Origin: Dehalococcoidia bacterium
Lineage (GTDB): Bacteria; Chloroflexota; Dehalococcoidia; Lucifugimonadales; Lucifugimonadaceae
Reading direction: 5' to 3'
Assembly: GCA_014239735.1 (NCBI GenBank)
Contig: JAAZYI010000024.1
Span: 58,670-122,669, forward strand
Length of the DNA: 64,000 bases
The translations under genes and the position numbers were made by a program. The notes beneath the pieces were generated by a model that saw nothing but the letters and a program-made list of their open reading frames with translations, had not been told where the DNA came from and ran no database searches. Below, in pieces: positions 9,831 to 58,936 of this stretch (positions are counted from its first letter, which is position 1; each line of letters begins with the position of its first letter).

Positions 9831-9834
9831 TTAT

Positions 9835-10590: not shown

Positions 10591-11686
10591 AAACTTTTAT
10601 TTCGTTATATAAAGCATCCCTTTCAACAGGGATTTTTCTAGCTTCCTTAATTAGATAAATCATTTTCTCCATAGCCAATCCTCCTGGTGAGTTAGCTTTT
10701 GCAGCATGCATTATATTTTCTTTCACTATTGTTCCATCTAAATCATCAGCTCCAAAATTAAGTCCAATTGATGCAGTTTGTTCTCCGATCGTTACCCAGT
10801 AAGATTTAATATGACTAATGTTATCCAGCATAAGCCTAGATAAAGATATCATTTTTAAATCATCTAACGGTGTTGCTGGATTGTCTGTTAGTTGTGTTGT
10901 GCCTGTTTGATATTGGAGAGGGATAAATGCTAAGAAACCATTTGTTTCATCCTGCAAATCTCTAAGTTGTATAAAATGATCCACTCTTTCCTCAATTGTT
11001 TCTATGTGGCCATATAGCATAGTGCAGTTCGATTTTATTCCTTGTTTATGAGCTATTTTATGAATCTCTTGCCATCTAGAAGCTTTAGATTTGCCTGGCA
11101 ACAACATTTTATGAACCCTTGGAGAAAAAACTTCTGCGCCTCCTCCAGGCATTGAGGTTAGCCCTGCTTCTTTCAGTCTTGCAAGCGATTCTTCTGGGTC
11201 AATCTTCCATCTTTTATGAAAATAATCAATTTCAGCTGCAGTAAATCCTTTTATGTGCAAATTAGGATGCTTACCTCTTATAGACCTAACTATTTCTTCA
11301 TAGTATTCGAACTTCCAAGTTGGATGATGGCCCCCAACCATGTGAACTTCGCGCATTTCATCGTTTATGCTTCCTAGAATTTCTTCTACAGTCATTTCGT
11401 AAGCATCATCATCACCTTTCTTTTTGGCAAAATCGCAAAAACTGCAACTCAAAACACATATATTAGTAGGGTTTACGTGTCTATTTAAAACAAAGAAAAC
11501 TTTATCGCCTGAAACTTCCCTTTTTTTAATATCTGCGAGTTTACCTAAAGTATGGATATCTTCAGTTTCAAATAGATTAACCCCATCTTCAAAGTTTAAT
11601 CTCTGCTTACTTATAATTTTTTCAGCAATCTTATTTAACTTTTTGTCTGATGAAATAATATTTTCTATTTCCAATAAGTTTCCCAT
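10580..11686 (-). CDS. mqnE: radical SAM enzyme, aminodeoxyfutalosine synthase-like
   Basis: 'NPTNICVLSCSFCDFAKK' CxxxCxxC motif, 'GGGAEVF', paralogous to the mqnC-like gene. Confidence 0.72.
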   Translation of the reverse strand: MGNLLEIENIISSDKKLNKIAEKIISKQRLNFEDGVNLFETEDIHTLGKLADIKKREVSGDKVFFVLNRHVNPTNICVLSCSFCDFAKKKGDDDAYEMTVEEILGSINDEMREVHMVGGHHPTWKFEYYEEIVRSIRGKHPNLHIKGFTAAEIDYFHKRWKIDPEESLARLKEAGLTSMPGGGAEVFSPRVHKMLLPGKSKASRWQEIHKIAHKQGIKSNCTMLYGHIETIEERVDHFIQLRDLQDETNGFLAFIPLQYQTGTTQLTDNPATPLDDLKMISLSRLMLDNISHIKSYWVTIGEQTASIGLNFGADDLDGTIVKENIMHAAKANSPGGLAMEKMIYLIKEARKIPVERDALYNEIKVYDD

Positions 11687-25817: not shown

Positions 25818-25991
25818 ATGGATGACAGGTCATACAGAGAAGGGCACCCCCCCTACTGCACATGTGTAGAATGCATAGAAAAAAATAATAAAAATCAAAA
25901 AAAAATGATTCAATTCAGTATTAGGCGCCCCATTGTTTTAACCCTTATATTTTTAGTTATGATTTCTTTAATCTTGATAATTTTTATATAA
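25818..25991 (+). CDS. candidate small tail-anchored membrane protein (57 aa), absent from the ORF track
   Basis: ATG preceded by 'AGGA'. N-terminal 'HPPYCTCVEC' Cys motif, a Lys-rich linker, then the hydrophobic C-terminus 'IVLTLIFLVMISLILIIFI'. Fills one of the few long intergenic gaps. Confidence 0.3.
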   Translation: MDDRSYREGHPPYCTCVECIEKNNKNQKKMIQFSIRRPIVLTLIFLVMISLILIIFI

Positions 25992-26943
25992 ATTTATTTT
26001 CTGAAAGACTAGCCCATAATTCTGGAGGTATAGTTTCATTTGCTATATCTATATTATCTTTTACTTCATTTATTGAGCTCATGCCTGGAACAACAGAAAA
26101 AACTTGAGAGTTGTTCAAAACAAAATTTAAAGCAGCAGATTTTAATGAAATGTTAAATTTGTTTGTAGTTTTTTCGATATTTTTTGCCTTATTGATTAAA
26201 TGAATAGGAGCAATTTCATAGTTATATGAAACTGGAGAATTAAGATCTCTTGCTAAAATCCCGCTATTATAAGGTCCTCCTATAATCACCCGAACACCTT
26301 TCTGGGCACACATTTTCATGAATTTAGTTGACTTAGTATTTTCTAAAAGAGTGTATCTTCCTGCTAAAAGTATTTTATCCAAGTCTATATTCTCCATAAA
26401 ACGAATAGGCATTTCGCATTCATTCATTCCGCAGCCAATGTTTTTAATGATACCTTCTTCTTTCATCTTTAACATTTCTGGGAATGCAAATCGAACTGCT
26501 TCTCTTTCTAGGCCCCCTTGATCAGGATCATGGAGCAAAAGTGTATCTAAATAATCAGTTTTTAGTCTTAGCAAAGACTCTTCTGTAGACCTTCTAATTC
26601 CGTCTTTTGAGTAGTCAAATATGGGCTCTCCGTAACCCTTATCTATTTCCATTTCATTTATTTTAGAACTATTTTTATTTCTTGAATTTCTGATTAATCT
26701 TCCACATTTAGAAGTTAAATTTATATTCTCTCTCTTTATTCCTTTTAAAGCTCTTCCATACCATAGTTCGCTTCTTCCGAATCCATACAAAGGGGCAGTA
26801 TCAAATATTTTTATTCCTGATTCGTATGCATAATTTATTATTTCAATTGTTTTTTCTTGATTTGCACCACCAAAAATGCCATCAGCTAGAACATTCCCAA
26901 AAGTTGCTCCTCCCAGACCTAATTTACTTAAATTATTATTCAT
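25984..26943 (-). CDS. aldo/keto reductase
   Basis: 'LGLGGATFG', 'FDTAPLYG.G.SE', 'YLD.LLLHDP'. Confidence 0.85.
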   Translation of the reverse strand: MNNNLSKLGLGGATFGNVLADGIFGGANQEKTIEIINYAYESGIKIFDTAPLYGFGRSELWYGRALKGIKRENINLTSKCGRLIRNSRNKNSSKINEMEIDKGYGEPIFDYSKDGIRRSTEESLLRLKTDYLDTLLLHDPDQGGLEREAVRFAFPEMLKMKEEGIIKNIGCGMNECEMPIRFMENIDLDKILLAGRYTLLENTKSTKFMKMCAQKGVRVIIGGPYNSGILARDLNSPVSYNYEIAPIHLINKAKNIEKTTNKFNISLKSAALNFVLNNSQVFSVVPGMSSINEVKDNIDIANETIPPELWASLSENKFI

Positions 26944-27997
26944 CTAATTTTAATATTACTTCTTCAGCGCATTCAGTTGTTGTAGCATTCCCGCCAAGGT
27001 CTGCAGTAATGCTATTGCCAGTCTTTAAAACAATTTTTACTGCCTCTCTAATCGAATTTGCGGCATTATTTTCTCCTAAATAAGACAGCATCATTGCCCC
27101 TGTTAATATCTGTGCCATCGGATTTGCAATATCTTGCCCTTCTATATCAGGAGCACTTCCATGAGTAGGCTCAAACATAGAGGGGTTATCTTTATTTTCT
27201 GATATATTTCCGCTTGATGCTAAACCAAGCCCTCCAGTTATCATGGCAGCAATATCTGTGAGAATATCACCAAATAAATTACTAGCAACAACTACATCGA
27301 ATTCAGAAGGTTTTCTTATGAAATCCATACAAGCAGCATCGATCAATAATGAATTAGTTTTAACATCTGGGTAATCTTTTGATACCTCTTTAAAAACCTT
27401 ATCCCACAAGACCATAGAATATCCTTGAGCGTTAGATTTGGTGATTGATGTTAACTTTTTATTTCTGTCCATTGACAGATCAAAGGCGTACCTTATAACC
27501 CTTTCTGTTCCTTTTCTTGTAAAAACAGATGATTGAATCGCAATTTCATCATCAAAATTTTCGTATTGAAAGCCTCCAACATTAGCATACTCTCCTTCTG
27601 TATTTTCTCTAACAACAACTAGGTCTATTTCTCCTGCATTAATACCTTTTAATGGAGACTCAACGCCTTCAAACAAAGCAGATGGTCTTAGGCATACAAA
27701 TTGATCAAATCTTCTCCTTATAGGTAAAAGTAACCCATTTAAAGTTATGTGATCTTGAATTTTTGGGTCACCAACTGCTCCTAAAAAAATTGCATCAAAG
27801 TTACTTAGAATTTCTAAGCCATCTTCAGGCATCATTTTTTTGTTTTTAAAATAAAAATCTGAACCCCAATCAAAAGAATCATAGTTGAGCTTAAAGTTAT
27901 TTATAGTTGCGACGCTATCTAGTACTCTGCAAGCTTCTCTGACCACTTCTTTTCCTATTCCGTCGCCTGGAATTACTGCTATTTTATATTCATTCAT
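26936..27997 (-). CDS. tartrate/D-malate dehydrogenase-type member of the isocitrate/isopropylmalate dehydrogenase family
   Basis: 'YKIAVIPGDGIGKEV', 'VVVRENTEGEY', 'NLFGDILTD', 'GSAPDI'. Confidence 0.8.
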   Translation of the reverse strand: MNEYKIAVIPGDGIGKEVVREACRVLDSVATINNFKLNYDSFDWGSDFYFKNKKMMPEDGLEILSNFDAIFLGAVGDPKIQDHITLNGLLLPIRRRFDQFVCLRPSALFEGVESPLKGINAGEIDLVVVRENTEGEYANVGGFQYENFDDEIAIQSSVFTRKGTERVIRYAFDLSMDRNKKLTSITKSNAQGYSMVLWDKVFKEVSKDYPDVKTNSLLIDAACMDFIRKPSEFDVVVASNLFGDILTDIAAMITGGLGLASSGNISENKDNPSMFEPTHGSAPDIEGQDIANPMAQILTGAMMLSYLGENNAANSIREAVKIVLKTGNSITADLGGNATTTECAEEVILKLDE

Positions 27998-27998
27998 T

Positions 27999-28886
27999 TT
28001 AAACCTCTTTGTCTTTTGATAATTTATTTATATAGATAGCAACACTAGCTATATCAGGCTCATCAATATCTAATTTATCCGTTTCCTCGAATAAATTTAA
28101 TGATAAGCTAGTTAATGGCAGATCCAAGTTCATTTGGTTACTCATTTCAGATATAATTTTTAAGTCTTTTACTATGTTTCTTATTGGGGCTGAAGAGTTT
28201 TCATAGTCCTTTTTCATATATATTGGCATATTTCTTTCAACCATTCTGCTGCCCCCAAAGCTTTTTGAAAGAATTTTTATTACTGAATTTAAGTCTATTC
28301 CGTATTTGTCTGCAAGAATCGCTGCTTCCATTGCAGCAACAGTATTAACTGAAGTCAGAAGCTGATTGACTATCTTCATGGATGTGCCAGTTCCTGGTCC
28401 TCCCATATGAACAACAGTTGTGCCCATTTTATTGAAAATTGGTTTAGCTTTTTCAAACGCTATACTGTCCCCACCACACATTATCGTTAAGGTCCCTTCA
28501 TTTGCACCTACTGGCCCCCCACTAATAGGAGCATCAATAAAATATACATTTTTATCTAAAGATTTTTCCCATATCAACTTTGAAGTTTCAACATCTACAG
28601 TGCTATGATCAACTATTATCGTGCCAGGCTTTGCTTCACTTAGAATTCCATTTTTTCCTAAAAAAACTTCAATCGAAGTTTCAACATTAGGTAGGCACGC
28701 AAGTATAAGCTCAGAATCATTAGTCAGTGACTTAATGCTTTTATGAGAAAACGCACCTTTTTCAACAAATGGCACCATTTTAGATTTTGATCTTGTAAAT
28801 ACGTTTAGATAAATTCCTTTTTCTACAAGATTGTGTGCCATTCCGCTACCCATGTTCCCTAGACCTATAAATCCAACTTTACTCAT
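27999..28886 (-). CDS. NAD(P)-dependent 3-hydroxyisobutyrate / tartronate-semialdehyde reductase family dehydrogenase
   Basis: 'VGFIGLGNMGSGMAHNL', 'DAPISGG', 'KIVNQ' region. Confidence 0.85.
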   Translation of the reverse strand: MSKVGFIGLGNMGSGMAHNLVEKGIYLNVFTRSKSKMVPFVEKGAFSHKSIKSLTNDSELILACLPNVETSIEVFLGKNGILSEAKPGTIIVDHSTVDVETSKLIWEKSLDKNVYFIDAPISGGPVGANEGTLTIMCGGDSIAFEKAKPIFNKMGTTVVHMGGPGTGTSMKIVNQLLTSVNTVAAMEAAILADKYGIDLNSVIKILSKSFGGSRMVERNMPIYMKKDYENSSAPIRNIVKDLKIISEMSNQMNLDLPLTSLSLNLFEETDKLDIDEPDIASVAIYINKLSKDKEV

Positions 28887-28954
28887 ATACCTCCAATAAA
28901 TTATTTTTATTGAAATTATGATATTTTAATTACTGGCCCTAAAACAAATTTGTT

Positions 28955-29740
28955 ATGAAAAAATTTTCTATAGAAATATTACCTAAGCAAAAATCAAAAA
29001 TTGTTGAGCTAAATCCTCAATTTTTTGAGGATGTTTATATAACACATATCCCAGGCTCCTCTTTGGAAGATTTAATAGATACTGCCAAGGAAGTAATTAT
29101 TCACGGCTTTAACCCAGTGCCTCATATACCTGCAAGATCAATTACTGATGAATCTTTATTGAATAAAACTTTAAAAAATTTAAAAGAAATAGGGGTCAAG
29201 GATTTGTTGACGATAGGGGGAAGTGTAAAGAATATAGTTGGTGAATTCGACTCAACAATAGATATGTTTAAAACTGGAGTATTAAATAACATTGTTTTTA
29301 GAAGTGTAAGAATCGCTGGCCACCCAGAGGGAAATCCTGATGATAAGAATTCAAAGGAATCTCTAAAAAATAAACTAATTTGGCTGAAAAAAAACAAATA
29401 TTCAACATCGATAGTTACTCAATTTTGCCTATCACCAGAAATAACAAATACCTGGATAAACGAAACCAAAGATTTGATACAAGAATTTGGAAGAGATGAT
29501 ACTAAAATTATTATTGGGGTGGCAGGACCTTCAAAAATTACTACTCTTATTAAATATGCTAAGGTGTGTGGTGTAAGTTCATCTGCAAATTTTCTAATCA
29601 AGCAGGGCTTGGACATTACAAAGTTGATAAAGCATTCCCCTACTGAATTGATAAAAAAATTAGATGGTTTTGACTCTCTACATTTCTTCCCTTTTGGAGG
29701 GATAAAAGAATTAGATAATTGGTTATTAAATCAAGTATAA
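28955..29740 (+). CDS. metF: methylenetetrahydrofolate reductase family protein
   Basis: 'FSIEILP' N-terminus (compare SFEFFPP), 'IAGHPEG', 'FCLS' region. First gene of the corrinoid/C1 cluster. Confidence 0.78.
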   Translation: MKKFSIEILPKQKSKIVELNPQFFEDVYITHIPGSSLEDLIDTAKEVIIHGFNPVPHIPARSITDESLLNKTLKNLKEIGVKDLLTIGGSVKNIVGEFDSTIDMFKTGVLNNIVFRSVRIAGHPEGNPDDKNSKESLKNKLIWLKKNKYSTSIVTQFCLSPEITNTWINETKDLIQEFGRDDTKIIIGVAGPSKITTLIKYAKVCGVSSSANFLIKQGLDITKLIKHSPTELIKKLDGFDSLHFFPFGGIKELDNWLLNQV

Positions 29741-29753
29741 TCAAAGGAAAAAA

Positions 29754-30761
29754 ATGAAAAGATTTACAGTAATTGGTGAAAATATACATGCGACTAGAGT
29801 GCTGAGACTTAATGGAAAAAGAGTTGGGGATAATGATGAAGGAGTTCAATCAGTCAAGTACTATTCTGAAGGGGAGACAAAATTTATGACAATTCCTGAT
29901 GAAATGAAAAAAACTCAACCATATCAGCAAGGCCAAGCTAAACACTTTATGATTGCTGTATGGAAAGGCTTGTTTGGTGACTCTAGAGATCAAGAAGAGT
30001 CTGCTGATTACATTAAAAATGAAATAAAACGTCAAGAAGTGGCAGGCGCAAACTTCTTAGATCTAAATGTTGACGAGATGTCTCATAAGCTTGATATTCA
30101 GATTAAAGCAATGAAATGGTTGGTCTCAATTGTAGAGAAATTTTCTTCAGCTCCACCAAGTATAGATTCCTCTAATTCAGAAATAATTCAGGCAGGCTTA
30201 GCTCAATATACAGGAAAACAAGGTAGTCCAATGATAAATTCTATTGCACTAGAAAGAGTGGAAACTTTTGATTTAGTACAAGAATTTAATGCTAGTGCAA
30301 TCTTGACTGGTGCTAGCGAAGATGGGATGCCTAGTAATTCTGATGAAAGAGTCACCAATATAAATAAGATTGTGGAAATCTCAAAAAAACATAATATTAA
30401 TTTTTCAGATATACACCTCGATCCGCTTGTATTCCCTATTTCTGTAGCTCCAGAATATGGAGTTCATTTTTTTGATGCCGTAGAAAAGATCAGGGAATTA
30501 TTTGGTGATGAAATAAATATAAGCGGAGGGCTTAGTAATGTTTCTTTTGGTCTTCCTAGAAGAAAATTAGTAAATGATGTTTTTATATATATTTGCCTTC
30601 AGAGAGGCCTAGATAGTGGAATAATAGATCCCTTACAGTTAAAAATTGATGATATTTTGGCGCTCGATGAAAATTCTGAAGACTTCAAAATAGCAGAAAA
30701 TATGCTTATGGGAAGAGATGATTTTTGTATGAATTATATAAAATATTGCAGAGAAGGATAG
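29754..30761 (+). CDS. pterin-binding methyltransferase (methyl-THF:corrinoid methyltransferase; MetH pterin-domain / MeTr-like)
   Basis: 'IGENIH', 'LDLNVDE', 'SIDSSN', 'INSIA', 'GGLSNVSFGLPRR', matching the dihydropteroate-synthase-like pterin-binding fold of MetH/AcsE. Confidence 0.82.
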   Translation: MKRFTVIGENIHATRVLRLNGKRVGDNDEGVQSVKYYSEGETKFMTIPDEMKKTQPYQQGQAKHFMIAVWKGLFGDSRDQEESADYIKNEIKRQEVAGANFLDLNVDEMSHKLDIQIKAMKWLVSIVEKFSSAPPSIDSSNSEIIQAGLAQYTGKQGSPMINSIALERVETFDLVQEFNASAILTGASEDGMPSNSDERVTNINKIVEISKKHNINFSDIHLDPLVFPISVAPEYGVHFFDAVEKIRELFGDEINISGGLSNVSFGLPRRKLVNDVFIYICLQRGLDSGIIDPLQLKIDDILALDENSEDFKIAENMLMGRDDFCMNYIKYCREG

Positions 30762-30762
30762 A

Positions 30763-31104
30763 TTGATTAAAATCAGAATAATGTATTGGAAAGAGATACC
30801 TGTGCAAATTGAATTTTCTACTTCTTCAATAAAAAAGTCTGTTAAATTAGATGAAAGGTTTCAATTTGCAGTTGACTCTTTGTCAATGAAGGATGGTAGT
30901 TATGGATCTGATGATTATTTAGATGGGTGGCAATGGAAAGATAAAGAAGAGATTGAGGAAGAATTTACGGAAAAATTACTCAATGAATATTTAGATAGAT
31001 ATAAATATCCTCAAGATTTAATAAAAAAAACTACTGAACTGTTAAAATCTGGTAAAAGAGACGAGTCTCCAGGCGCAATAGATGACTGGATTATAGGTAA
31101 TTAA
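30763..31104 (+). CDS. small conserved protein of the type found beside split methionine-synthase genes ('virulence factor'-annotated family); TTG start
   Basis: N-terminus 'IRIMYWKEIPVQI' resembles the 'YWRDIPAQV' start I recall for that family. Tightly coupled: 1 nt after the upstream stop and 1 nt before the next start. Confidence 0.5.
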   Translation: MIKIRIMYWKEIPVQIEFSTSSIKKSVKLDERFQFAVDSLSMKDGSYGSDDYLDGWQWKDKEEIEEEFTEKLLNEYLDRYKYPQDLIKKTTELLKSGKRDESPGAIDDWIIGN

Positions 31105-31105
31105 C

Positions 31106-31987
31106 TTGAGTTTTATAGACAGAATAAATTCTCCAGGTACTTTGCTCTCAGATGGAGCAACAGGTACTTTTTTACAAACAAGAGGGCTTGAGCCAGGTGG
31201 TTGTCCAGAATTAATGAATGTAGAAAAAGAAGATGCCGTTATTGAAATGGCTCAGGGTTATTTCGATTCTGGATCAGATTTCGTATTAACAAATACTTTT
31301 GGGGGAAGTCCGTTCATGTTAAAGAAATACGGTTACGAGAAAAAAACCCATGAATTTAATAAAGCTGGAGCTGAATTAGCAAAGTCAGTGTGCCCTAAAG
31401 ACAAATTTGTATTCGGCTCTATAGGGCCTACTGGAGAATTTATAAAACCTTTAGGTAATGTATCTGAAGATGAAATGTCAGATGGTTTTAAAAGACAGAT
31501 TAATGGTCTTTTAGAAGGAGGAGTTGATGGAATAATTTTTGAAACACAAATGGCGATAGAAGAGTTAGTCTTAGGTATAAAAACAACTAAATCGATAACA
31601 AATTTGCCGATTATAGGCAGTATGGTTTTTGACAAAGGCCCAAGAGGTTTTTTTACAATGATGGGGGTAACTCCAGAGCAGGCATCAGCTGAAATTTATA
31701 ATGCTGGAGCTGATATAGTGGCTACAAATTGTGGTAATGGATCAGAAATTATGTCAGAACTTTCTAAGGAGTTAATTAGTCATAGCAAGCTGCCTGTTAT
31801 GATTCAGTCAAATGCTGGCATTCCTAAAATAGTTAAAGGAAAGGTAATTTATGATGAAAAACCTGATTTTATGACTAAAAATTATAAAAAAATTATAGAT
31901 TACGGGGCAAGCATTATTGGTGGATGTTGTGGAACTACATTTGAACATATAAAAAGATTTAGAAAATTTTTAAATGAAAATGATTGA
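31106..31987 (+). CDS. homocysteine S-methyltransferase domain protein (MetH Hcy-binding module or MmuM/BHMT-like); TTG start
   Basis: 'LLSDGATGT', 'TNTFG', Zn ligands 'ATNCG' and 'GGCCGTT'. Confidence 0.85.
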   Translation: MSFIDRINSPGTLLSDGATGTFLQTRGLEPGGCPELMNVEKEDAVIEMAQGYFDSGSDFVLTNTFGGSPFMLKKYGYEKKTHEFNKAGAELAKSVCPKDKFVFGSIGPTGEFIKPLGNVSEDEMSDGFKRQINGLLEGGVDGIIFETQMAIEELVLGIKTTKSITNLPIIGSMVFDKGPRGFFTMMGVTPEQASAEIYNAGADIVATNCGNGSEIMSELSKELISHSKLPVMIQSNAGIPKIVKGKVIYDEKPDFMTKNYKKIIDYGASIIGGCCGTTFEHIKRFRKFLNEND

Positions 31988-32009
31988 ATATTTTATTATA
32001 ATTTAAATT

Positions 32010-32672
32010 ATGAATATTAGACCTATAGAAGTAATTGAAAAGTATGGAAGGTGCATAGAGTTAATTTCTATGGATCCTTTTTTTAATGAAATAACTATCG
32101 GCTTATTTTTTAAAGAACCTAACATAACAGTATTTTCTTATAGTAAGCTTGATGGCGTTTCAGGAAGGTTAAATCAAATTAGAGATCGGATTGTTGATGT
32201 ATCTGGGGCTCTTCCTAATGAAGCCAACCCACATCAGGCAACATTTAAATGTGGTATGGAAGGAGGCTGCTGCTCTGCCCCACTTAGGTTTGCTTTAAAG
32301 GAAGCGGTAACTAAAGATAGAGAATTAGATCTTTCTCAAGGCATTATCTGTAAGGACTTAAGATCAAACATGATGATAAAAGTTAATTATGAAGAAAATT
32401 CAAATGGAAAAATCTATACTGTTTCAGGTGATGATAATGCCGAAAAACCAATTATAAGATATAGGGCAATTACTAATGGGCTTATTAAGTACGGAGGGTT
32501 TGAAAGAATTGATAATTTTTCATTCAGATTAAGTTGCAATGAAAGAAATGATAAAATTGTAAACCTTCTCCTTCCTTTAGCAAGAAATATCAGTGCGACA
32601 GAAGAATCATTAGCATCAGAAGATGCTGCCGGGCAAATGACAACACAATCTCTAGGTTTTTCAGCAAATTAA
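32010..32672 (+). CDS. hypothetical protein, 220 aa, no recognised family
   Basis: Uninterrupted ORF inside the co-directional corrinoid cluster. Stop lies 1 nt before the next start. Contains 'CGMEGGCCSAP' (Cys81, 87, 88). No TM segments. Confidence 0.6.
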   Translation: MNIRPIEVIEKYGRCIELISMDPFFNEITIGLFFKEPNITVFSYSKLDGVSGRLNQIRDRIVDVSGALPNEANPHQATFKCGMEGGCCSAPLRFALKEAVTKDRELDLSQGIICKDLRSNMMIKVNYEENSNGKIYTVSGDDNAEKPIIRYRAITNGLIKYGGFERIDNFSFRLSCNERNDKIVNLLLPLARNISATEESLASEDAAGQMTTQSLGFSAN

Positions 32673-32673
32673 A

Positions 32674-33717
32674 ATGATAGATATTAACTTGAAATTAACA
32701 AAAAAACAGCGAGTTCTTAATGCGCTAGCTGGCGAAGACGTAGATAAGCCACCGGTATCAAATCCTACAAATGTTGCGACAGTAGAACTAATGGATTATG
32801 TTGACGCTCCATTTCCAGATGCGTGCAGAAATCCTGAACTTAATGCTAAATTAGCCTTGACAGGTCACACTGAACTTGGATTTGATTCTATTGCTCCTTA
32901 TTTTTCTATTATTCAAGAATCTTCGGCTCTAGGTTGTGAAATGCAATGGGAACAGAAAGATAATTGGCCAACTGTAAGAATGGGAAACCCAATTTGGAAA
33001 TCTATTTCTGATATTAAAATTCCATCTGGATTTCTTGAGCACCAAGATAATGTTGCAATTACTAGATCTATTAATATTTTAAAAGAAGAAGTAAAAGGCG
33101 AGGTTGCAATATTAGGCAAAACCATGGGGCCATGGACTTTAGCATATCATGTTTTTGGGGTTGAGCCGTTTCTTTTATTGTCAATTGATGACCCAGAAGA
33201 AACAAAAAAAATACTAAGAAAATTAAAAGAAATTACTATTCTTTTTGGTCAAGCTCAAATCGATTCAGGAGCAGATGTTTTAGTAATCCCAGATCATGCA
33301 ACTGGAGATCTTGTGAGTGGTAAATATTATGACGATTTTTTATTAGAAATTCATCAGGAATTAGTTGAGGATTTAAAAGTTCCACTGATCCTGCATATTT
33401 GCGGTAGAACTGTAGATAGAATGCCTTCTATAGCAAAAACTGGTATGGCAGCTTTTCATTTTGACTCAAAGAATCTGCCATCTGAAGCTATGGAAGCTGT
33501 TGGAGAAGGTATTAGGCTTGTTGGCAACATCAATAATCCTGAAACTCTTTACTCTAAAACCCCTGAAGATGTCAGACAGGAAGTTTATAGGGCACTTGAT
33601 TCAGGTGTCCAGCTTATTGCTCCTGAGTGTGCTATTCCTCTTAAAACAAAAATAGAAAATCTGCTTGCAATACCAGATGCTGTAAATCAGTGGGTTTCTA
33701 ATAAATTTCAATCTTAG
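32674..33717 (+). CDS. uroporphyrinogen-decarboxylase-family methyltransferase (MtaA/MtbA/MtsA-like methylcobamide:thiol methyltransferase)
   Basis: N-terminus 'KKQRVLNALAGEDVDKPPV' typical of MtaA-like proteins. Zn motif 'LILHICGRT' (H-x-C) plus the distal 'APECAIP' Cys. 347 aa. Confidence 0.8.
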   Translation: MIDINLKLTKKQRVLNALAGEDVDKPPVSNPTNVATVELMDYVDAPFPDACRNPELNAKLALTGHTELGFDSIAPYFSIIQESSALGCEMQWEQKDNWPTVRMGNPIWKSISDIKIPSGFLEHQDNVAITRSINILKEEVKGEVAILGKTMGPWTLAYHVFGVEPFLLLSIDDPEETKKILRKLKEITILFGQAQIDSGADVLVIPDHATGDLVSGKYYDDFLLEIHQELVEDLKVPLILHICGRTVDRMPSIAKTGMAAFHFDSKNLPSEAMEAVGEGIRLVGNINNPETLYSKTPEDVRQEVYRALDSGVQLIAPECAIPLKTKIENLLAIPDAVNQWVSNKFQS

Positions 33718-33759
33718 TCAATATATGATATAAATTCGCTTTAGTAACATTCTATAATT

Positions 33760-34497
33760 ATGATAAAACACGAAGGACTTAAAGAAGAATTTAATTATGT
33801 GACTAAACCCGATGAGCAAGAACATATTGAGGGGTTATTTGCGAGCGGCGATATGCTGATGCAAGAAATTGCTTACAACCTTATCACAGGTCAGAATGAT
33901 CAAGTTGGAATTTTAGTAAAAAAAGCACTAGATGAAGATTACGCAGCAAATATTGTCCTTGATGATGGCTTGATAGCAGGAATGGCTATTGTAGGTGTTA
34001 AATTTAGAGATAATATTATTTTTGTTCCTGAAGTATTAATTTCTGCTAGAGCTATGAAGGCAGGAATGGAGCATATAGAACCTATTTTATCTGCCTCAGG
34101 GATTGAGCCTGTTGGCACTGTGATTATGGGAACCGTCAAGGGCGACCTTCATGATATAGGAAAAAATCTTTGCATAATGATGCTAAGGGGCGGCGGTTTT
34201 TCAGTTCATGATTTAGGAGTAGATACTAAACCTGATGACTTTATCGATGCTGTAATGGAACATGGTGCCGCAATTGTTGGGATGTCAGCTCTTTTGACTA
34301 CCACAATGCCAAATATGGGAACAACAATTGAAGCTTTTGAGGATGCAGGTATGCGAGAAGAAGTAAAAATAATGGTTGGAGGAGCTCCTGTAACACAAGA
34401 ATTTGCTGATGAAATGGGTGCAGATGCATATGGCGCAAATGCTATAGATTGTGTTCAAAAAGCTAAAGATTTTTCAACTACTAAAAATGGCACCTAA
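33760..34497 (+). CDS. corrinoid (cobalamin-binding) protein, cap plus Rossmann B12-binding domains
   Basis: 'GDLHDIGKN' (D-x-H-x-x-G), 'MSALLTTT' (S-x-L), 'MVGGAPV' (G-G). N-terminal helical cap. Confidence 0.9.
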   Translation: MIKHEGLKEEFNYVTKPDEQEHIEGLFASGDMLMQEIAYNLITGQNDQVGILVKKALDEDYAANIVLDDGLIAGMAIVGVKFRDNIIFVPEVLISARAMKAGMEHIEPILSASGIEPVGTVIMGTVKGDLHDIGKNLCIMMLRGGGFSVHDLGVDTKPDDFIDAVMEHGAAIVGMSALLTTTMPNMGTTIEAFEDAGMREEVKIMVGGAPVTQEFADEMGADAYGANAIDCVQKAKDFSTTKNGT

Positions 34498-34756
34498 AAA
34501 AAAATTAACGGATAAAAAACGTGCAAAAGAAAGCCTAGAGACTCTATTTGATATTTTTAAGGAAATTTCAAATCATGCAGACGAATTAACAAAAAAAAGA
34601 TGCCCTTATAAAAATGCTAAATCAAGATGTACCGCTAAGTTTGAGTGTAAGAACCAACACTATATAAAAAAATTTGGAGAAGGGCCTGTGTGTACTGGAT
34701 CAGATCTTCTTGATTATAGACCTGCGTGGAGAACAGATAAAAAAATTAGCTCCTGA
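34487..34756 (+). CDS. small basic Cys-rich protein (about 89 aa from the ATG at 34487; the ORF track starts it at an upstream GTG, 34451)
   Basis: The ATG overlaps the last codons of the corrinoid-protein gene. Four Cys in 'RCPYKNAKSRCTAKFECKN...GPVCTG'. Confidence 0.5.
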   Translation: MAPKKKLTDKKRAKESLETLFDIFKEISNHADELTKKRCPYKNAKSRCTAKFECKNQHYIKKFGEGPVCTGSDLLDYRPAWRTDKKISS

Positions 34757-34770
34757 TAGAATATATCATT

Positions 34771-36393
34771 ATGGGTGATATTAAATCTGATAGTAATAGA
34801 ACGCCTTCTTTAATAGGCAAAACACTTTTTGACTTTGCAGACACATTAAGTATTAGAGTTCCTACAAGTTGCGGAAGGACTGGAGAGTGTCATGAGTGCA
34901 TTATTCAAGTTACTGAAGGATTAGAAAACTTGTCAGAAAAAAAAGAGCTTGAGAGTTTTCTGGGTCCGGAATTTAGATTAGCCTGCCAAGCCATTATAAA
35001 TAATGATAGTAATAATGTTAGTTTTAATGTTTTAAGAAGGCAGCCTAAAATACTAGACAAAGGAAATAAAACTGACTTTTCATTAAATCCATCTGTTATT
35101 TTAAATGAAAGTAAAGTTATTTATAAATATGATAATCGTGTTTTAAATGAGAAAATTACTCCAATTTATGGCGTTGCTGTTGATTTAGGAACCACTACAG
35201 TAGTGTGCAGTATTATAGATTTAATTAGTGGTAAAAAAATTGGAACTTCTTCATTTGAAAACCCTCAAAGATTTGGAGGTAGCGACACATTAAATAGAAT
35301 TTCATATGAAACAACTAAATTCCCCGGAGAGTTAAAATCAGTGATTATTTCTGGAATAAATTTTGAAATTGGTGAATTGTGCAAAAAAAATAAAATTAGA
35401 AGGTCTCATATTTATGAAATGGTAATAGTCGGTAATACTACTATGCGAGATATTTTTTTTGGGATAGATGTTTCTTCAGTTGGCCAAAAACCTTATAAAT
35501 CAATAACTCAACTCGAACTTGAAAATGGAAAAAGAGATTCAACAGCACTTTTATTTAATTCTTCAGAACTTGGGATAAGGATTAACAAAAAAGGCTTAAT
35601 TGTTAGCCCACCATTAATTTCATCTCATATAGGTTCTGATATTACTGCTGATTTAGTTTCTATATCTGCTGATACTCATGAAGAAAATTTTATTTTATTA
35701 GACGTTGGGACAAATACTGAAATTGTTATAGGAAATAAAGATAATTTAGTAGCCGCTTCTTGCCCTGCAGGACCAGCATTTGAAGGTGGGGAGGTAAGGT
35801 ATGCTATGCCAGGCTATGATGGTGCTATTGAGAAATTTGAAATAAATAATGGAATAGAAACCTTTTCTACAATTAATAATAATCCTCCGCAAGGTATCTG
35901 TGGGTCTGGATTAATAGATTTGCTTGCTGCCCTCAAATCAAATTCAATAATTAATGAATTAGGCGTTTTATCAAATGGAAGCGACCATTATGAAATTAAT
36001 AATAGTAACGGAATAAATATTTCTAGATCTGATATGAGTGCATTAGCTCAAGCAAAAGCAGCAAATTATTGTGGCCAGTCAATAGCTTTAAAGAATTCAT
36101 CAATAGATATAAATAATTTTGATAAACTTTATTTAAGTGGTGGATTTGCAAATTATATTAATGTAGATAATGCAATTAAAATTGGATTTATAATAGATAC
36201 TCCAAATGCTGAAATAATAAAAATTGGCAACTCAGCACTTCAAGGGGCAATTATGTTATTACTTGATGTTAATTTAAGAAGTAAATTTGATAATCTTGTT
36301 AAATCTATTAAGCACATAGAATTGGAAACTGATGAGAGTTTTTTTGAACATTTTGTTGAAGGTTGTCAATTTAAAGAATTATCTATTATGTAA
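34771..36393 (+). CDS. corrinoid reductive activase (RACo/RamA-like: N-terminal [2Fe-2S] ferredoxin plus ASKHA ATPase, DUF4445-type)
   Basis: 'SCGRTGECHEC...LACQA' plant-type 2Fe-2S pattern. ASKHA phosphate motifs 'AVDLGTTTV' and 'LLDVGTNTE'. Also 'ICGSGLIDL'. Confidence 0.85.
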   Translation: MGDIKSDSNRTPSLIGKTLFDFADTLSIRVPTSCGRTGECHECIIQVTEGLENLSEKKELESFLGPEFRLACQAIINNDSNNVSFNVLRRQPKILDKGNKTDFSLNPSVILNESKVIYKYDNRVLNEKITPIYGVAVDLGTTTVVCSIIDLISGKKIGTSSFENPQRFGGSDTLNRISYETTKFPGELKSVIISGINFEIGELCKKNKIRRSHIYEMVIVGNTTMRDIFFGIDVSSVGQKPYKSITQLELENGKRDSTALLFNSSELGIRINKKGLIVSPPLISSHIGSDITADLVSISADTHEENFILLDVGTNTEIVIGNKDNLVAASCPAGPAFEGGEVRYAMPGYDGAIEKFEINNGIETFSTINNNPPQGICGSGLIDLLAALKSNSIINELGVLSNGSDHYEINNSNGINISRSDMSALAQAKAANYCGQSIALKNSSIDINNFDKLYLSGGFANYINVDNAIKIGFIIDTPNAEIIKIGNSALQGAIMLLLDVNLRSKFDNLVKSIKHIELETDESFFEHFVEGCQFKELSIM

Positions 36394-36401
36394 GGAAAAA
36401 T

Positions 36402-37376
36402 ATGAAGATTGTAATTTCAGATTATGCTTGGCCTAACATAGATATTGAAAAAGAATATTTTATGAGTAAGTCAGTAGATATAAATATTGCCACTGGAAAA
36501 GATGACTTACTAAATAAAATCGAAGATGCAGATGGACTACTTTTTTGTTTTGAGGATATTAATGAAGATGTTTTAAGATCCGGCAAAAAACTTAAAGCTG
36601 CGCAAAGATATGGTATAGGAGTAGACAATATTAACATTAAGGTAGCTACAGAGTTGGGTATAGTAGTTTCAAATATTCCAGATTACTGTATCAATGAAGT
36701 TTCAGATCATGCGCTATCTATGATACTCGCTATAAACAGAATGATTATACCTGATAGCAAAATGGTAAAACTGGGCAAATGGAATGATGTTAAAAAAGGC
36801 AGTAGAGTGTACAGACTTAAAGATGCAACATTAGGAATTATAGGTTTTGGTCGCATTGGTAGACGCCTTGCATTTAAGGCAAAAGCATTAGGATTAAATG
36901 TTATTGCATATGACCCATATATTAATGAAAAGATTTATGATGACGTAAACATTTTATCTTTTGATGAAGTCATTTCAAATAGTGACATATTATCGCTTCA
37001 CGTACCTCTTACGGAGGAAACTAATCATTTGATTAGTAATAAAGAGCTTGAAAAAATGAAAAAAGATGCAATTTTAATTAATGTTTCGAGAGGTGGCTTG
37101 ATTGATGAAGCAGCCCTTTCAAAATATTTAGATAATGGAAAAATTAGAGGCGTGGGTTTAGATGTCATGGAAGATGATAATCCATCTCCTTCTAATCCTT
37201 TATTTAAATATGAAAATGTAATTGTTACACCTCACACTGCATTTTTCTCTCAAGAATCTAGCCAGGAGCTACAAATCAGATCTTGTAAGCAGTTATATGA
37301 TGTATTAAATGGGAAAATACCAGAGTTTTTAATTAATCCTGATGTACTAGATCATTCAGACGTTAATCTTATTTGA
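36402..37376 (+). CDS. D-isomer-specific 2-hydroxyacid dehydrogenase
   Basis: 'LGIIGFGRIGRRLA' NAD site, 'INVSRGGLIDE', 'GLDV', 'TPHTAF'. Confidence 0.85.
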   Translation: MKIVISDYAWPNIDIEKEYFMSKSVDINIATGKDDLLNKIEDADGLLFCFEDINEDVLRSGKKLKAAQRYGIGVDNINIKVATELGIVVSNIPDYCINEVSDHALSMILAINRMIIPDSKMVKLGKWNDVKKGSRVYRLKDATLGIIGFGRIGRRLAFKAKALGLNVIAYDPYINEKIYDDVNILSFDEVISNSDILSLHVPLTEETNHLISNKELEKMKKDAILINVSRGGLIDEAALSKYLDNGKIRGVGLDVMEDDNPSPSNPLFKYENVIVTPHTAFFSQESSQELQIRSCKQLYDVLNGKIPEFLINPDVLDHSDVNLI

Positions 37377-37885
37377 TGAATATTAAAAATTTTATCAGAG
37401 AAATTGATGACTACCCAGAAAAAGGAGTCTCATTCAAAGACATCACCACTTTAATTTTTGATGTTAAAGCATTCAAGTTTACTCTTGACGTCATGACTGG
37501 ATTTATTTCAAGCGATATTGATTATATTGCATCAATTGATTCAAGAGGATTTATATTTGGATCGGCAATATCTGACAGATTAGATATCCCTAACATTTTA
37601 TTAAGGAAAAAAGGTAAGCTGCCACCACCAGTAATCTCTAAAGAATATAAACTTGAATATGGCCAAGATACTATAGAAGTAGGAAAAATTACTGTTCCCG
37701 AAAATAAAAAAATAATGATTATAGATGATCTAATTGCATCTGGAGGAACAGCGAAAGCTTCGCTGGATTTATTAGAAATGTGTGGCAATTCAGTTTTAGG
37801 AATAATAGTTGCAGTAAAATTACAATATTTAAATCCTAGAAAATTATTTACTAAACCTATTTATTCAGTATGCGAATATAATTAA
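37373..37885 (+). CDS. apt: adenine phosphoribosyltransferase
   Basis: 'DYPEKGVSFKDIT', 'SRGFIFG', PRPP motif 'IMIIDDLIASGGTA'. Confidence 0.9.
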   Translation: MMNIKNFIREIDDYPEKGVSFKDITTLIFDVKAFKFTLDVMTGFISSDIDYIASIDSRGFIFGSAISDRLDIPNILLRKKGKLPPPVISKEYKLEYGQDTIEVGKITVPENKKIMIIDDLIASGGTAKASLDLLEMCGNSVLGIIVAVKLQYLNPRKLFTKPIYSVCEYN

Positions 37886-38043
37886 TTTGAGGATTTATCA
37901 ATAAAGTCTTCAATCAATCTTTTGTATTCAGAAAGTATAAATTCTAGATTTTTTATACTCTCATCAAGCATAGATTTTCCCTCAATATCCATTGATTTTA
38001 TTTTTTTTAGGTTTTCTAAAGTTTCTGTGATTATCTCTCTCAT
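37882..38043 (-). CDS. candidate 53-aa helical protein, absent from the ORF track
   Basis: The ATG overlaps the ThDP-enzyme stop as TGATG. Fills the whole gap down to apt, with a convergent 4-nt overlap. No family recognised. Confidence 0.3.
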   Translation of the reverse strand: MREIITETLENLKKIKSMDIEGKSMLDESIKNLEFILSEYKRLIEDFIDKSSN

Positions 38044-39662
38044 CAGTCCCCTATTGTTCCTCCAAAATTATCTTGATATATCTTTGGGTCTATTCTTGCA
38101 TCTATTACAGTCGCTACTTCGCTTTTAAAAGCATTGATTAAAGCTTTTCTAAAATCTTCTGGATTATCGGCAGTTTCACCCTTCAATCCGCAAGATTTGG
38201 CAACTCCAGCAAAATCAACCATTTTTAGGTCTAACCCATAATCATCATAACCCCTAAACCCTTGCCTATATTTCATTGTTCCTAATGCGGCATCATTGAT
38301 TATGACTATTGGCCATTTTAAATTACTTCTTTTAATTGTTTCAAACTCACCTAATCTCATAAGCGTACTTCCGTCTGCGCCTATTCCCATTAAAGGGGTT
38401 TCATTATTTGTAGCTAAAGCTCCTCCTATATACGAAGGAATCATTAACCCCATGCTCCTGCCTCCAGAAGTTCCAAAATATTTTAATGGCTTGTCGAATT
38501 TCCAAGTATTTTCTAATAAAGCAATGAAAGCTCCAGTCTCAGTGAACAGTAAGCCATCTTTAGGAAGTATTTCCTTTGATATTTCTATAACATCTTGTGC
38601 TGCAAATATAGCACTTTTAGGCCTTGAAAATCTAGGATCTATATCCTTGTATATTTGATGTATTTCATCTGTTTTCCATCCAGTTTTTTCATTTGAATCC
38701 ATTAACATTTTGATTAAATCTTTTATATTGCCGCTACAAATTGTCTTTGGGCTGCTAGATAATGTCTTAGATTTTCTATTTGATACTATTTCAACTGTAT
38801 CAACTACTCCTTCAGGCCAAGGAGCATGCGTCATCATTTGGTCTGCTCCAATTAATATTATTAAATCTGAACCTGATGTTAGTATATTCGGCCTACTATT
38901 GTCTCCTTGTCCAAATGCTGTTGAAACACCTACCCATCTTTTATGGGTTTCAGGGAAAACTCCTCTTGCCTTCATTGTAGACAAGACTCCAGCCCCAATT
39001 TTTTCTGATAATTTCACTACTTCTTCTATTGCATCATCTTTTCTTGCGCCATCACCAATTAATATCATTGGTTTTTTAGAATTATTTATTAAATTAATGA
39101 TTTCTTTAATTTTATCAAATGAATTATTATGTCCTTTATCTTTTGGTCTTAATTTTTCATCTTCTGCTTCAATAAGCCCCATGTCAGATGGAAAGTCTAT
39201 AAGAACAGGTCCAGGCAATCCGTCGATGGAAGTACTGAATGCATTTCTAATTGAATGGGCAGGATTATCACTTGATAGTGTAATCATAGATTTTGTAACT
39301 GACTTCATTAGCCCTTGGTGGTCAGTATGCTGAACCATTTCATTTTCATAAGAATAATTAGGAGTAGTTTCACATACGCATACCACTGGCATTCTTTCGA
39401 AATACGCATTCGCTACCCCACCAGCCAAATTCCCTGCCCCTACGCCTTTTACTCCTAAGCATAACCCTGCAGATTCTTTGATCAATCCATAAGTTCCTGC
39501 AGCGATAGCAGCAGTAGATTCATGAGCTACATTAATAAAATGAAGATCAATATTTTTACCACTATCCATTAAATCTAAAGGGACCCCGCTACCAGGTATT
39601 CCAAAGAAATGATCATTTTTCATTTCTTTTGCTATTTTCATAAAAAGTTCACTTAAATTCAT
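38043..39662 (-). CDS. thiamine-diphosphate-dependent enzyme, acetolactate-synthase-like fold; substrate unknown
   Basis: 'FFGIPGSG' N-terminal Pyr domain. C-terminal ThDP motif 'GADGSTLM...IINDAALG'. Confidence 0.85.
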   Translation of the reverse strand: MNLSELFMKIAKEMKNDHFFGIPGSGVPLDLMDSGKNIDLHFINVAHESTAAIAAGTYGLIKESAGLCLGVKGVGAGNLAGGVANAYFERMPVVCVCETTPNYSYENEMVQHTDHQGLMKSVTKSMITLSSDNPAHSIRNAFSTSIDGLPGPVLIDFPSDMGLIEAEDEKLRPKDKGHNNSFDKIKEIINLINNSKKPMILIGDGARKDDAIEEVVKLSEKIGAGVLSTMKARGVFPETHKRWVGVSTAFGQGDNSRPNILTSGSDLIILIGADQMMTHAPWPEGVVDTVEIVSNRKSKTLSSSPKTICSGNIKDLIKMLMDSNEKTGWKTDEIHQIYKDIDPRFSRPKSAIFAAQDVIEISKEILPKDGLLFTETGAFIALLENTWKFDKPLKYFGTSGGRSMGLMIPSYIGGALATNNETPLMGIGADGSTLMRLGEFETIKRSNLKWPIVIINDAALGTMKYRQGFRGYDDYGLDLKMVDFAGVAKSCGLKGETADNPEDFRKALINAFKSEVATVIDARIDPKIYQDNFGGTIGD

Positions 39663-56483: not shown

Positions 56484-56526
56484 TAAATTGGTTTAATATT
56501 TAATTTTTATATTAACAATAAAAATA

Positions 56527-56659
56527 TCTCTAAGGATAAGAGAATCGGTTTAAATCCGAACGGTTTGCGCCACTGTTACGCGTGATGCATTGGTCACTGG
56601 ATAATATCTGGGAAGGCTAATTTAAAATGTACGCATAAGTCAGGAGACCTCCTTAAAGA
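56527..56659 (+). promoter_or_regulatory. cobalamin (B12) riboswitch aptamer
   Basis: Conserved 'GAATCGGTTTAAATCCGAACGG', 'GCCACTG' (56569-56575), 'CTGGGAAGGC', and B12-box 'AAGTCAGGAGACCTCC' (56637-56652). P1 pairs TCTCTAAGGA (56527-56536) with TCCTTAAAGA (56650-56659) at 9 of 10 positions. Lies upstream of a btuCFD-like operon. Confidence 0.85.
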
Positions 56660-56707
56660 ATAGTTAAAGGTTTTCGCAATAAAAAATCTGTATTTCAGAG
56701 ATTTATT

Positions 56708-57787: not shown

Positions 57788-57790
57788 AAA

Positions 57791-58930: not shown

Positions 58931-58936
58931 TTAAAT

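Follow-up and report, generated by a model that had tools for sequence, protein, structure and literature searches.

In Ruegeria pomeroyi, Phaeobacter inhibens and Sinorhizobium meliloti, MtgBCDE together with MetF2, RamA and DUF1638 form a dual glycine-betaine methyltransferase and split methionine synthase (PMC12478193; PMC5764234). The split methionine synthase was defined genetically (Price et al. 2018, PMC5764234), and genetic proof followed in 2025 that in Ruegeria the corrinoid protein MtgC, with an MttB-type enzyme as loader, serves both glycine-betaine demethylation and methionine synthesis (Mausz et al. 2025, PMC12478193). To judge from sequence comparison, this is the closest known system to a run of nine genes that we analysed in a 64-kb stretch of DNA from a Dehalococcoidia bacterium (contig JAAZYI010000024.1), hereafter called the window. 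Gene content was determined for the window in this genome, and to 10 kb on either side in relatives. As a module, the last five genes of the run occur in several phyla, and in the literature searched, which left subscription-only journals mostly outside, we found no description of this module, of the SAR202 operon or of MtaA-type systems in aerobic bacteria.

The genes are labelled g1 to g9 in the order of their open reading frames (ORFs) on the + strand:

28955..29740, + strand: g1, MTHFR-family protein, type 4-like (261 aa, ATG start)
29754..30761, + strand: g2, pterin-binding methyl-tetrahydrofolate (methyl-THF):corrinoid methyltransferase, MeTr/MtgD-like (335 aa, ATG start)
30763..31104, + strand: g3, small PF13769 ('Virulence_fact') protein (113 aa, TTG start)
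31106..31987, + strand: g4, homocysteine-binding Zn methyltransferase, MtgE-like (293 aa, TTG start)
32010..32672, + strand: g5, conserved protein without a named family, directly upstream of the MtaA-like gene (220 aa, ATG start)
32674..33717, + strand: g6, MtaA/MtsA-type Zn methyltransferase of the UroD superfamily (347 aa, ATG start)
33760..34497, + strand: g7, corrinoid carrier with B12 cap, Rossmann domain and DxHxxG motif (245 aa, ATG start)
34487..34756, + strand: g8, small Cys4 protein between the corrinoid protein and RACo (89 aa, ATG start)
34771..36393, + strand: g9, ATP-dependent reductive activase of the RACo/RamA type, [2Fe-2S] ferredoxin domain at the N-terminus (540 aa, ATG start)

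Our preferred reading, held with moderate confidence, is that the cluster works as a single unit, a hub for cobalamin methyl transfer made of several components, which would be loaded by g6 and unloaded to THF or homocysteine. Methyl groups, probably from a sulfur-linked donor, would thus reach folate or methionine via a single B12 carrier. The corrinoid protein g7 would cycle between Co(I) and CH3-Co(III), and three TIM-barrel methyltransferases would dock to it in turn: g6 would load it by demethylating a small methyl donor, g2, presumably in a reversible reaction, would hand the methyl group from g7 to THF, and g4 would use methyl-Co(III) to make methionine from homocysteine. The methyl-THF that results would be oxidised into the one-carbon pool by g1, and the Co(II) cofactor would be re-reduced by g9 using ATP, probably with the assistance of g3 and possibly with that of g5 and g8. 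We infer from the gene set that all three methyltransferases share g7 and that g6 stands on the donor side; exchange with THF by g2, homocysteine methylation by g4 and Co(II) repair by g9 are predicted by analogy.

An earlier note on this DNA had described nine packed, co-directional genes between 28955 and 36393, and the ORF check recovered all nine at these coordinates, with intergenic spacings from g1 to g9 of 13, 1, 1, 22, 1, 42, -11 (an overlap) and 14 nt, TTG as start codon in g3 and g4, and ATG in the other seven. For g8 we prefer the ATG at 34487 to the mechanical ORF start, GTG at 34451, the relatives being 87-89 aa long. The peptide motifs GGLSNVSFGLP, YWKEIPVQ, GGCCGTT, HICG...APEC and D-L-H-D-I-G (the last in g7) are present in the translations. 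The extent was set too short, however: the packed run comprises 11 genes and goes on through a hydroxyacid dehydrogenase and an adenine phosphoribosyltransferase gene. A scan of 28700-38200 for transcription signals was uninformative, with 38 promoter-like sites against a shuffle mean of 45 and no convincing internal terminator.

Each of the families named in the note passes profile searches, the MTHFR assignment of g1 doing so weakly. As it proposed, the homocysteine, pterin and B12 modules and the RACo protein look like the parts of a split methionine synthase without a S-adenosylmethionine (SAM) activation domain, and match MtgE, MtgD, MtgC and RamA, respectively (PMC5764234, PMC12478193). 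A profile search of the nine cluster proteins gave no match to that domain (PF02965). The likeness to the Mtg system is extensive: the corrinoid, pterin and homocysteine functions lie on separate genes, of which MtgC, MtgD, MtgE and RamA have homologues here; a RamA/RACo activase replaces the SAM activation domain; nearby are a PF13769 gene and a MetF paralogue assigned to methyl-THF oxidation; and the hosts are aerobic and marine, with one carrier for catabolism and methionine, which here is predicted from the genes. The idea of a carrier shared between a catabolic demethylase and methionine synthesis is, given the Ruegeria precedent of 2025, no longer just the proposal it was in the note.

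The two systems differ mainly in the loader. In the Mtg system it belongs to the MttB superfamily (PF06253), whereas here the candidate is a UroD-superfamily, MtaA-type Zn enzyme; PF06253 has no match among the nine cluster proteins, and all ORFs of at least 430 aa in the window are assigned elsewhere; no PF06253 gene lies in the window. DUF1638 (PF07796) has no match in this cluster, g5 is not homologous to it, and g5 and g8 have no counterpart in the Mtg system. Finally, the genes form a single operon here, in a Chloroflexota host.

Conserved gene order and the history of the cluster

When one genome per GTDB species was searched for the C-terminal motif GQM[TN]T[QGN][TS]LG, 308 g5 relatives were confirmed, nearly all titled Dehalococcoidia, Chloroflexota or SAR202. 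The Dehalococcoidia set consists of 80 species-level loci returned by the g5-motif scan, on which the window proteins were run by tblastn and the ORFs clustered. The order g3-g4-g5-g6-(g2)-g7-g8-g9, often with a 2-hydroxyacid dehydrogenase gene next, is found in nearly all 80 loci, and is kept even where g5 is only 36-45% identical. Because the order is conserved across these loci, the arrangement is not due to chance. By ORF clustering, g5 was found in 80 loci, g6 in 79, g4 in 78, g3 in 70, g7 in 65, g8 in 63 and g9 in 41, the lower counts for g7, g8 and g9 being largely due to contig ends and insertions; g3 lies directly before g4 in 70 of the 80. The neighbourhood test had been set beforehand, and its outcome bears out the earlier note: in 78-79 of the 80 loci, the UroD gene and the supposed orphan genes keep synteny with the MetH-like modules. 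The cultured SAR202 strain 'Ca. Lucifugimonas marina', represented by CP046147.1, has the same order, with a PF13769 protein, an S-methyl_trans protein, a 223-aa protein, a URO-D protein, a B12 protein, an 88-aa protein, RACo and the 2-hydroxyacid dehydrogenase.

The two first genes behave differently. Only in the low-GC clade (L007-L016) are g1 and g2 found directly upstream; outside this clade, g2 is located between g6 and g7 (about 20 loci) or there is none within 10 kb.

In large genomes of the SAR202 type, the operon gaps g5/g6 and g6/g7 have been invaded (L046 10807-13650; L063 10815-19115), the gene order being kept. These 1-5 kb insertions were considered as candidate substrate-specific methyltransferases, and this was rejected: they encode DNA methylase/endonuclease fusions, AbiJ, Uma2, DUF433 and HEPN. 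Two of the records that we used carry labels that look odd. OZ244252.1 (L039) is titled 'Candidatus Entotheonella sp.' and contains a Dehalococcoidia-type operon with g6 at 72% identity; CP090106.1 (L087), titled 'plasmid pSymB' yet 3.7 Mb long, contains the S. meliloti Mtg/MetF/ASKHA region.

The module is not restricted to Dehalococcoidia. Metagenome contigs were scanned with a distant g5 subfamily (24-33% identity), which gave 73 loci of 41-73% G+C, and gene content was counted in the 40 longer ones; narrower alignments seeded the collection scans, the broad ones being too diverse. Here too, g6, g7, g8 and g9 come after g5 in unchanged order, and according to the source labels the g6 proteins of these loci cluster with proteins from Terriglobia/Acidobacteriota, Alphaproteobacteria and Planctomycetota metagenome-assembled genomes (MAGs). 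A MeTr gene (g2) comes after the module in 14 loci, several of which have an MTHFR + DUF5981 gene before it and a PF13769 gene after it. A divergent GntR/FCD regulator gene is present in 22 of the 40 longer loci and PurU in 6 loci. The homocysteine module, in contrast, was found in only 1 of the 40, against 78 of the 80 in Dehalococcoidia. Conserved small ORFs upstream of g5 in these phyla were set aside, as their position and the low-complexity, Arg/Ser/Pro-rich composition of their translations suggest antisense shadows of the GntR gene.

Median identities to the window proteins, in other Dehalococcoidia and in other phyla, respectively, are 73% and 65% for g6, 73% and 66% for g7, 52% and 47% for g9, 51% and 42% for g8, 42% and 35% for g3, and 40% and 29% for g5; the value for g4 is 49% in other Dehalococcoidia, and a single locus has it elsewhere.

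Read from these comparisons, g5-g6-g7-g8-g9 is the evolutionary core, ahead of which Dehalococcoidia would have put the PF13769 protein and the homocysteine module, the streamlined clade having then added the MTHFR and MeTr genes. This reverses the earlier picture, in which the MtaA-like branch was an addition to a methionine synthase: g5-g9 is the part shared across phyla, and the homocysteine module, g1 and g2 came later. Overall, the earlier interpretation is partly supported.

The same distribution bears on the simplest view of the cluster, a split methionine synthase that would only transfer methyl groups from methyl-THF to homocysteine, g5, g6 and g8 being non-catalytic or devoted to assembly or repair, and their adjacency reflecting shared regulation. 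On paper, g2, g7, g4 and g9 are enough for methionine synthesis (PMC5764234). However, g5-g9 lacks the homocysteine module in 39 of the 40 other-phylum loci, which would be senseless if methionine were the sole purpose, and g6, in which conservation is highest among these proteins, has lost none of its catalytic Zn ligands. We consider this view very improbable.

The predicted components

The MtaA-like protein g6 matches PF01208 (URO-D) with 226.3 bits and, with 263.8 bits, passes the cut-off (244) of NF004889, the NCBIfam model for the methylcobalamin:coenzyme M (CoM) methyltransferase subfamily. It falls below the cut-offs of the equivalogs MtaA (242.8 against 400) and MtbA (194.6 against 600), and narrowly misses that of TIGR01463, mtaA_cmuA (235.2 against 235.4 bits). 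Its alignment with M. mazei MtaA (PDB 4AY7) is full length and scores 177 bits, with the zinc ligands His-x-Cys and Cys in register: HICG of g6 corresponds to HICG of 4AY7, and APEC to APGC. Identity to g6 is 68-77% in other Dehalococcoidia and 61-69% in other phyla; against plasmids, tblastn gave HemE-level matches only (at most 28%). Two SAR202 loci, L075 (10654-12800) and L076 (10652-12840), contain tandem MtaA-like copies, 61-62% and 70-71% identical to g6, a hint that some lineages may have a second substrate specificity.

The putative carrier g7 matches both PF02607 (B12-binding_2) and PF02310 (B12-binding) and has the motif DLHDIG. Its scores with the MtgC/MtbC-type NCBIfam models (186-188 bits) are under the equivalog cut-offs. 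With the S. meliloti cobalamin-binding protein located between the MttB-family gene and DUF1638 it shares 44% identity, and identity among all loci compared is 60-76%.

On the folate side, g1 reaches 24.9 bits with Pfam MTHFR, barely over the cut-off of 24, and has a sole significant PDB match, 7XG9, the Sphingobium S6MTHFR (121.8 bits, E 3e-34). This type 4 enzyme oxidises methyl-THF and pairs with demethylases, CmuAB among them (PMC11868366). Among the S6MTHFR signature residues, Leu48 is replaced in g1 by Ile (compatible), Pro268 is kept and Arg78 is replaced by Ser (incompatible). By sequence, g1 looks like a methyl-THF-oxidising type 4 MTHFR, for which that direction is predicted. The adjacent g2, 13 nt away, matches PF00809 (Pterin_bind, 70.8 bits) and NF005719 (198.6 bits). 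Its best PDB matches are the D. hafniense O-demethylase MT2 (4O0Q) and MeTr/AcsE, above the MetH pterin domains, and it is 31% identical to the MeTr of the S. meliloti Mtg cluster. The closeness to MT2 would argue for a catabolic direction, from the methyl donor to THF and on to oxidation. As to homocysteine, g4 matches PF02574 (S-methyl_trans, 202.9 bits), NF005718 (234 bits), a 'betaine-Hcy MT' model of the S. meliloti Bhmt/MtgE type, and the MetH N-terminal region (153 bits), and its Cys...GGCCGTT motif carries the Cys triad of the Zn module.

The activase g9 matches Fer2 (28.8 bits), Raco_middle (141.8 bits) and RACo_C_ter (210.5 bits), and AcsV with 298.6 bits, under the cut-off; the profile search gave no match to RACo_linker (PF17650). 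The 113-aa protein g3, held before to be unassignable, belongs to PF13769 (41.5 bits). In S. meliloti a PF13769 gene, whose product is 30% identical to g3, heads the row of MTHFR, MeTr and ASKHA genes, and the Terrarubrum flagellatum plasmid NZ_CP091854.1 (L088 8296-10578) encodes a 760-aa protein in which PF13769 is fused to Fer2, RACo_linker, Raco_middle and RACo_C_ter. This fusion ties g3 to the activase, of which it is probably a partner, as far as sequence can tell, and the name 'virulence factor' for PF13769 seems misleading. The Terrarubrum protein, itself annotated 'virulence factor', comes after a B12-binding protein and DUF1638. An AlphaFold2 model of g3 has a mean predicted local distance difference test score (pLDDT) of 78 and no fold match in the PDB at E <= 0.001.

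The 220-aa and 89-aa proteins, g5 and g8, had been called orphans; they are families without a name that have members in hundreds of genomes. No Pfam or NCBIfam match was found for g5. Its AlphaFold2 model (pLDDT 75) consists of beta-beta-beta-alpha repeats without a PDB match at E <= 0.001, and its profile run against PDB sequences gave noise only. A word-indexed search (27 clusters) had suggested a clade-restricted orphan, which was overturned by a HMMER profile search that retrieved 161 representative proteins. We also rejected g5 as a divergent DUF1638 (no Pfam match at E up to 5 with 26 members; hhalign probability 0.3 against the S. meliloti DUF1638), and a common ancestry of g3 and g5 through their beta-beta-beta-alpha start (hhalign probability 0.2). 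For g8 no Pfam or NCBIfam family was matched either; its pattern RCPY...CT...C...C...W and its four Cys are invariant in Dehalococcoidia and other phyla. The 112-aa hypothetical protein between MeTr and ASKHA in S. meliloti was tried as an equivalent of g8 and shows no similarity, and tblastn of g3 and g8 against plasmids found nothing.

Direction of methyl transfer and nature of the donor

Three arguments point to g6 as the loader of the hub. First, modules without the homocysteine gene are accompanied by MeTr, MTHFR, PurU and a regulator, as in the cmu and Mtg oxidation pathways. Second, g1 of the window looks like an oxidising MTHFR. Third, the cluster offers no other candidate loader, and every ORF of MttB size in the window has been assigned.

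The zinc site bears on the donor. In the UroD superfamily, His-Cys-Cys marks the S/Se-methyltransferases, and the O-demethylases swap one or both of the Zn-binding Cys for carboxylates or lose them (PMC10418091, Kountz and Balskus); the example of CdmB shows that haloalkane enzymes of the superfamily may do without zinc altogether. In methanogens, the UroD-family enzymes MtsA and MtpA carry out thioether demethylation onto a corrinoid, from dimethyl sulfide (DMS) and methylmercaptopropionate. The fold of g6 and its aligned His-Cys-Cys are those of MtaA, MtbA, MtsA and MtpA; unlike these enzymes, g6 would work in a bacterial aerobe without methanogenesis, the proposed acceptors being THF and homocysteine rather than CoM. 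Because its ligands align with those of MtaA, and UroD-type O-demethylases replace Cys, we infer a preference of the site for thioether (or selenoether) donors, for example methylmercaptopropionate, DMS or methanethiol, with selenide or halide less likely. The FCD-type regulator of the other phyla faintly hints at a carboxylate donor, for instance methylmercaptopropionate.

An ether donor would fit other parts of the cluster. A g6 that demethylated methoxylated aromatics in the manner of MtvB, OdmB and MtoB would suit the SAR202-type degraders of recalcitrant organic matter; the nearest structure to g2 is an O-demethylase component, g1 resembles an MTHFR that is paired with LigM-type demethylation, and GntR-family regulators control vanillate demethylation in some bacteria. 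Against this, g6 retains the His-Cys-Cys set that UroD-type O-demethylases replace or lose (PMC10418091), and is about as close to MtaA as CoM methyltransferases are to one another, which leaves methoxylated aromatics a highly unlikely substrate. The comparison with LigM/DesA/Dmt and S6MTHFR is still instructive (PMC11868366): there too, methyl-THF made by a demethylase is oxidised and tied to methionine supply, but those demethylases are corrinoid-independent and THF-dependent, whereas here the methyl group would travel via a B12 protein.

A halide donor deserves attention for a different reason, namely the parallel in gene set. CmuAB with MetF2, FolD and PurU of Methylorubrum extorquens CM4 combine an MtaA-like enzyme, a corrinoid module, a pterin methyltransferase and a type 4 MTHFR (PMC11868366), and PurU occurs in the related loci of other phyla. 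On this model g6 and g7 would be a split CmuA, g2 would be CmuB and g1 MetF2, passing the methyl group of CH3Cl, CH3Br or CH3I to THF or homocysteine; the near-threshold score of g6 with mtaA_cmuA is in line with it, and the Roseobacter MtgC has been reported to be close to CmuA. However, g6 scores better with the CoM-methyltransferase models than with mtaA_cmuA, CmuA being judged here via the profile model and its description, and the GntR/FCD regulator suggests an organic acid as effector. CmuA, moreover, is a single fusion, whereas g6 and g7 are separate ORFs 42 nt apart, which distinguishes the cluster from CmuAB; and the Cmu system, with its halide substrate, has no homocysteine module, g5, g8 or RACo in the operon. 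We regard methyl halides as a rather unlikely donor.

Type 1 mlp clusters, for which methyl-sulfur or methyl-selenium metabolism has been proposed (PMC10418091), are a further point of comparison. They contain at least two Mlps (Mlp2 and Mlp3) and no THF methyltransferase, and are found in obligate anaerobes only, whereas here there is one UroD gene (in tandem only in L075/L076), along with MeTr, a homocysteine methyltransferase and MTHFR, in aerobe-type genomes. The single UroD gene, the THF methyltransferase and the aerobe-type hosts therefore set our cluster apart from them.

Several points weigh against a donor-side g6 and the hub built on it. Of the characterised enzymes, MtaA and MtbA are nearest to g6, and they work on the acceptor side, transferring the methyl group from methyl-Co to a thiol, and to our knowledge only MtsA and MtpA run both ways. 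The conservation of g6 and g7 across phyla (61-77%) looks more like that of a housekeeping enzyme with a universal substrate than of niche catabolism. In many large Dehalococcoidia genomes g2 is not within 10 kb, g1 keeps two of the three S6MTHFR signature residues checked, and a role of g5 and g8 in reactivation is a guess, g5 being without fold or family match and g8 without family match.

Some of these points lead to the reverse arrangement, in which the hub would be fed only by methyl-THF via g2, and g6, in parallel to g4, would methylate a small thiol, sulfide or selenide, giving methanethiol, DMS or a methylated CoM-like thiol. Passing the CoM-methyltransferase cut-off, being closest to MtaA and having His-Cys-Cys intact are as expected for such an enzyme, high conservation suits a fixed endogenous substrate, and selenide and sulfide serve an Mlp homologue as methyl acceptors in vitro (PMC10418091). 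Yet a module that is accompanied in other phyla by MTHFR, PurU and GntR, without the homocysteine gene, has the signature of methyl oxidation and not of biosynthetic methylation. An oxidising MTHFR, which g1 resembles, would not supply methyl-THF, and we found nothing known for which aerobic heterotrophs would need such a product. We think this arrangement unlikely, though it deserves to be kept in mind next to the hub loaded by g6.

A bolder form of the latter can be formulated: g5-g9 would be an unrecognised, oxygen-tolerant, B12-dependent methyl-thioether demethylase, with g5 and g8 as new, essential partners to the activase and methyltransferase, and in the streamlined surface-ocean clade the obligatory supplier of methyl groups to methionine and folate one-carbon units. 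We put this forward tentatively, as a proposition with the chances against it; if true, the clade would show a methyl-group dependence like that of Sphingobium SYK-6.

Genomic surroundings and significance

The packed run continues beyond g9 with two genes:

36402..37376, + strand: D-2-hydroxyacid dehydrogenase, PGDH/glyoxylate-reductase-like (324 aa), 8 nt past g9
37373..37885, + strand: adenine phosphoribosyltransferase (170 aa), with a 4-nt overlap with the preceding gene

The first matches 2-Hacid_dh_C (194.6 bits) and reaches 270 bits with TIGR01327 (PGDH), whose cut-off is 454. The gene comes after RACo in at least 29 of the 80 Dehalococcoidia loci and in 'Ca. Lucifugimonas marina', and not in other phyla; it is probably co-transcribed with the cluster. 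The second (NF002636, 187 bits against a cut-off of 125) is syntenic in the low-GC clade only, and its membership in the system is doubtful. In L001/L002 (15502-16657), the most divergent low-GC members, a PNP_UDP_1 gene lies beside the phosphoribosyltransferase gene, just downstream of the operon. The PNP_UDP_1 family includes methylthioadenosine phosphorylases, and a link of this neighbourhood to the salvage of methylthio groups is conceivable.

On the other side of the cluster, a divergent group of three genes at 25984-28886 (- strand) codes for an aldo-keto reductase, an Iso_dh resembling tartrate dehydrogenase, which passes the TIGR02089 cut-off of 470.4 with 478.7 bits, and a protein like 2-hydroxy-3-oxopropionate reductase. 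Another 21-26 Dehalococcoidia loci, L017, L026 and L090 among them, have this trio upstream of the operon.

The window has about 32% G+C throughout, and the close g5 homologues all come from MAGs of marine Chloroflexota/Dehalococcoidia, in some cases on contigs of 1.21 Mb. In the region 56516-59680, 20 kb away from the B12-dependent genes, a permease of the FecCD type, an ABC ATPase and a periplasmic binding protein are encoded directly behind a cobalamin riboswitch (RF00174, 49.6 bits), in what looks like a BtuCFD-like operon for B12 uptake. Two CofH/MqnC-type radical SAM genes and a UbiD-family decarboxylase gene at 8721-13416 (- strand) look like the futalosine route of menaquinone biosynthesis, which would fit a respiring organism. 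A one-piece tmRNA with the tag peptide GEKEYALAAV lies at 6791-7138. The tmRNA, the menaquinone genes, and the cobalamin riboswitch and transporter all fit a streamlined, respiring, B12-importing host, and the small-genome, aerobe-like, quinone-respiring bacterium pictured in the earlier note is indeed a marine Chloroflexota with futalosine-type menaquinone genes.

In dark and surface ocean waters alike, few bacteria are more abundant than SAR202 and related Dehalococcoidia. If the proposed hub exists, the methionine and one-carbon supply of SAR202-type cells, and their demand for B12, would hang on a single methylated substrate, and the cluster would represent a B12-dependent sink for methyl groups of organosulfur (or other) compounds in marine and soil carbon and sulfur cycling. 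The principle of the shared carrier established for MtgBCDE would be extended beyond the MttB-type loaders of Proteobacteria, to loaders of the MtaA type in other phyla. Three uncharacterised families, PF13769, that of g5 and the Cys4 family of g8, gain a functional context, and the presence of the operon in a cultured SAR202 strain makes the question accessible to direct experiment.

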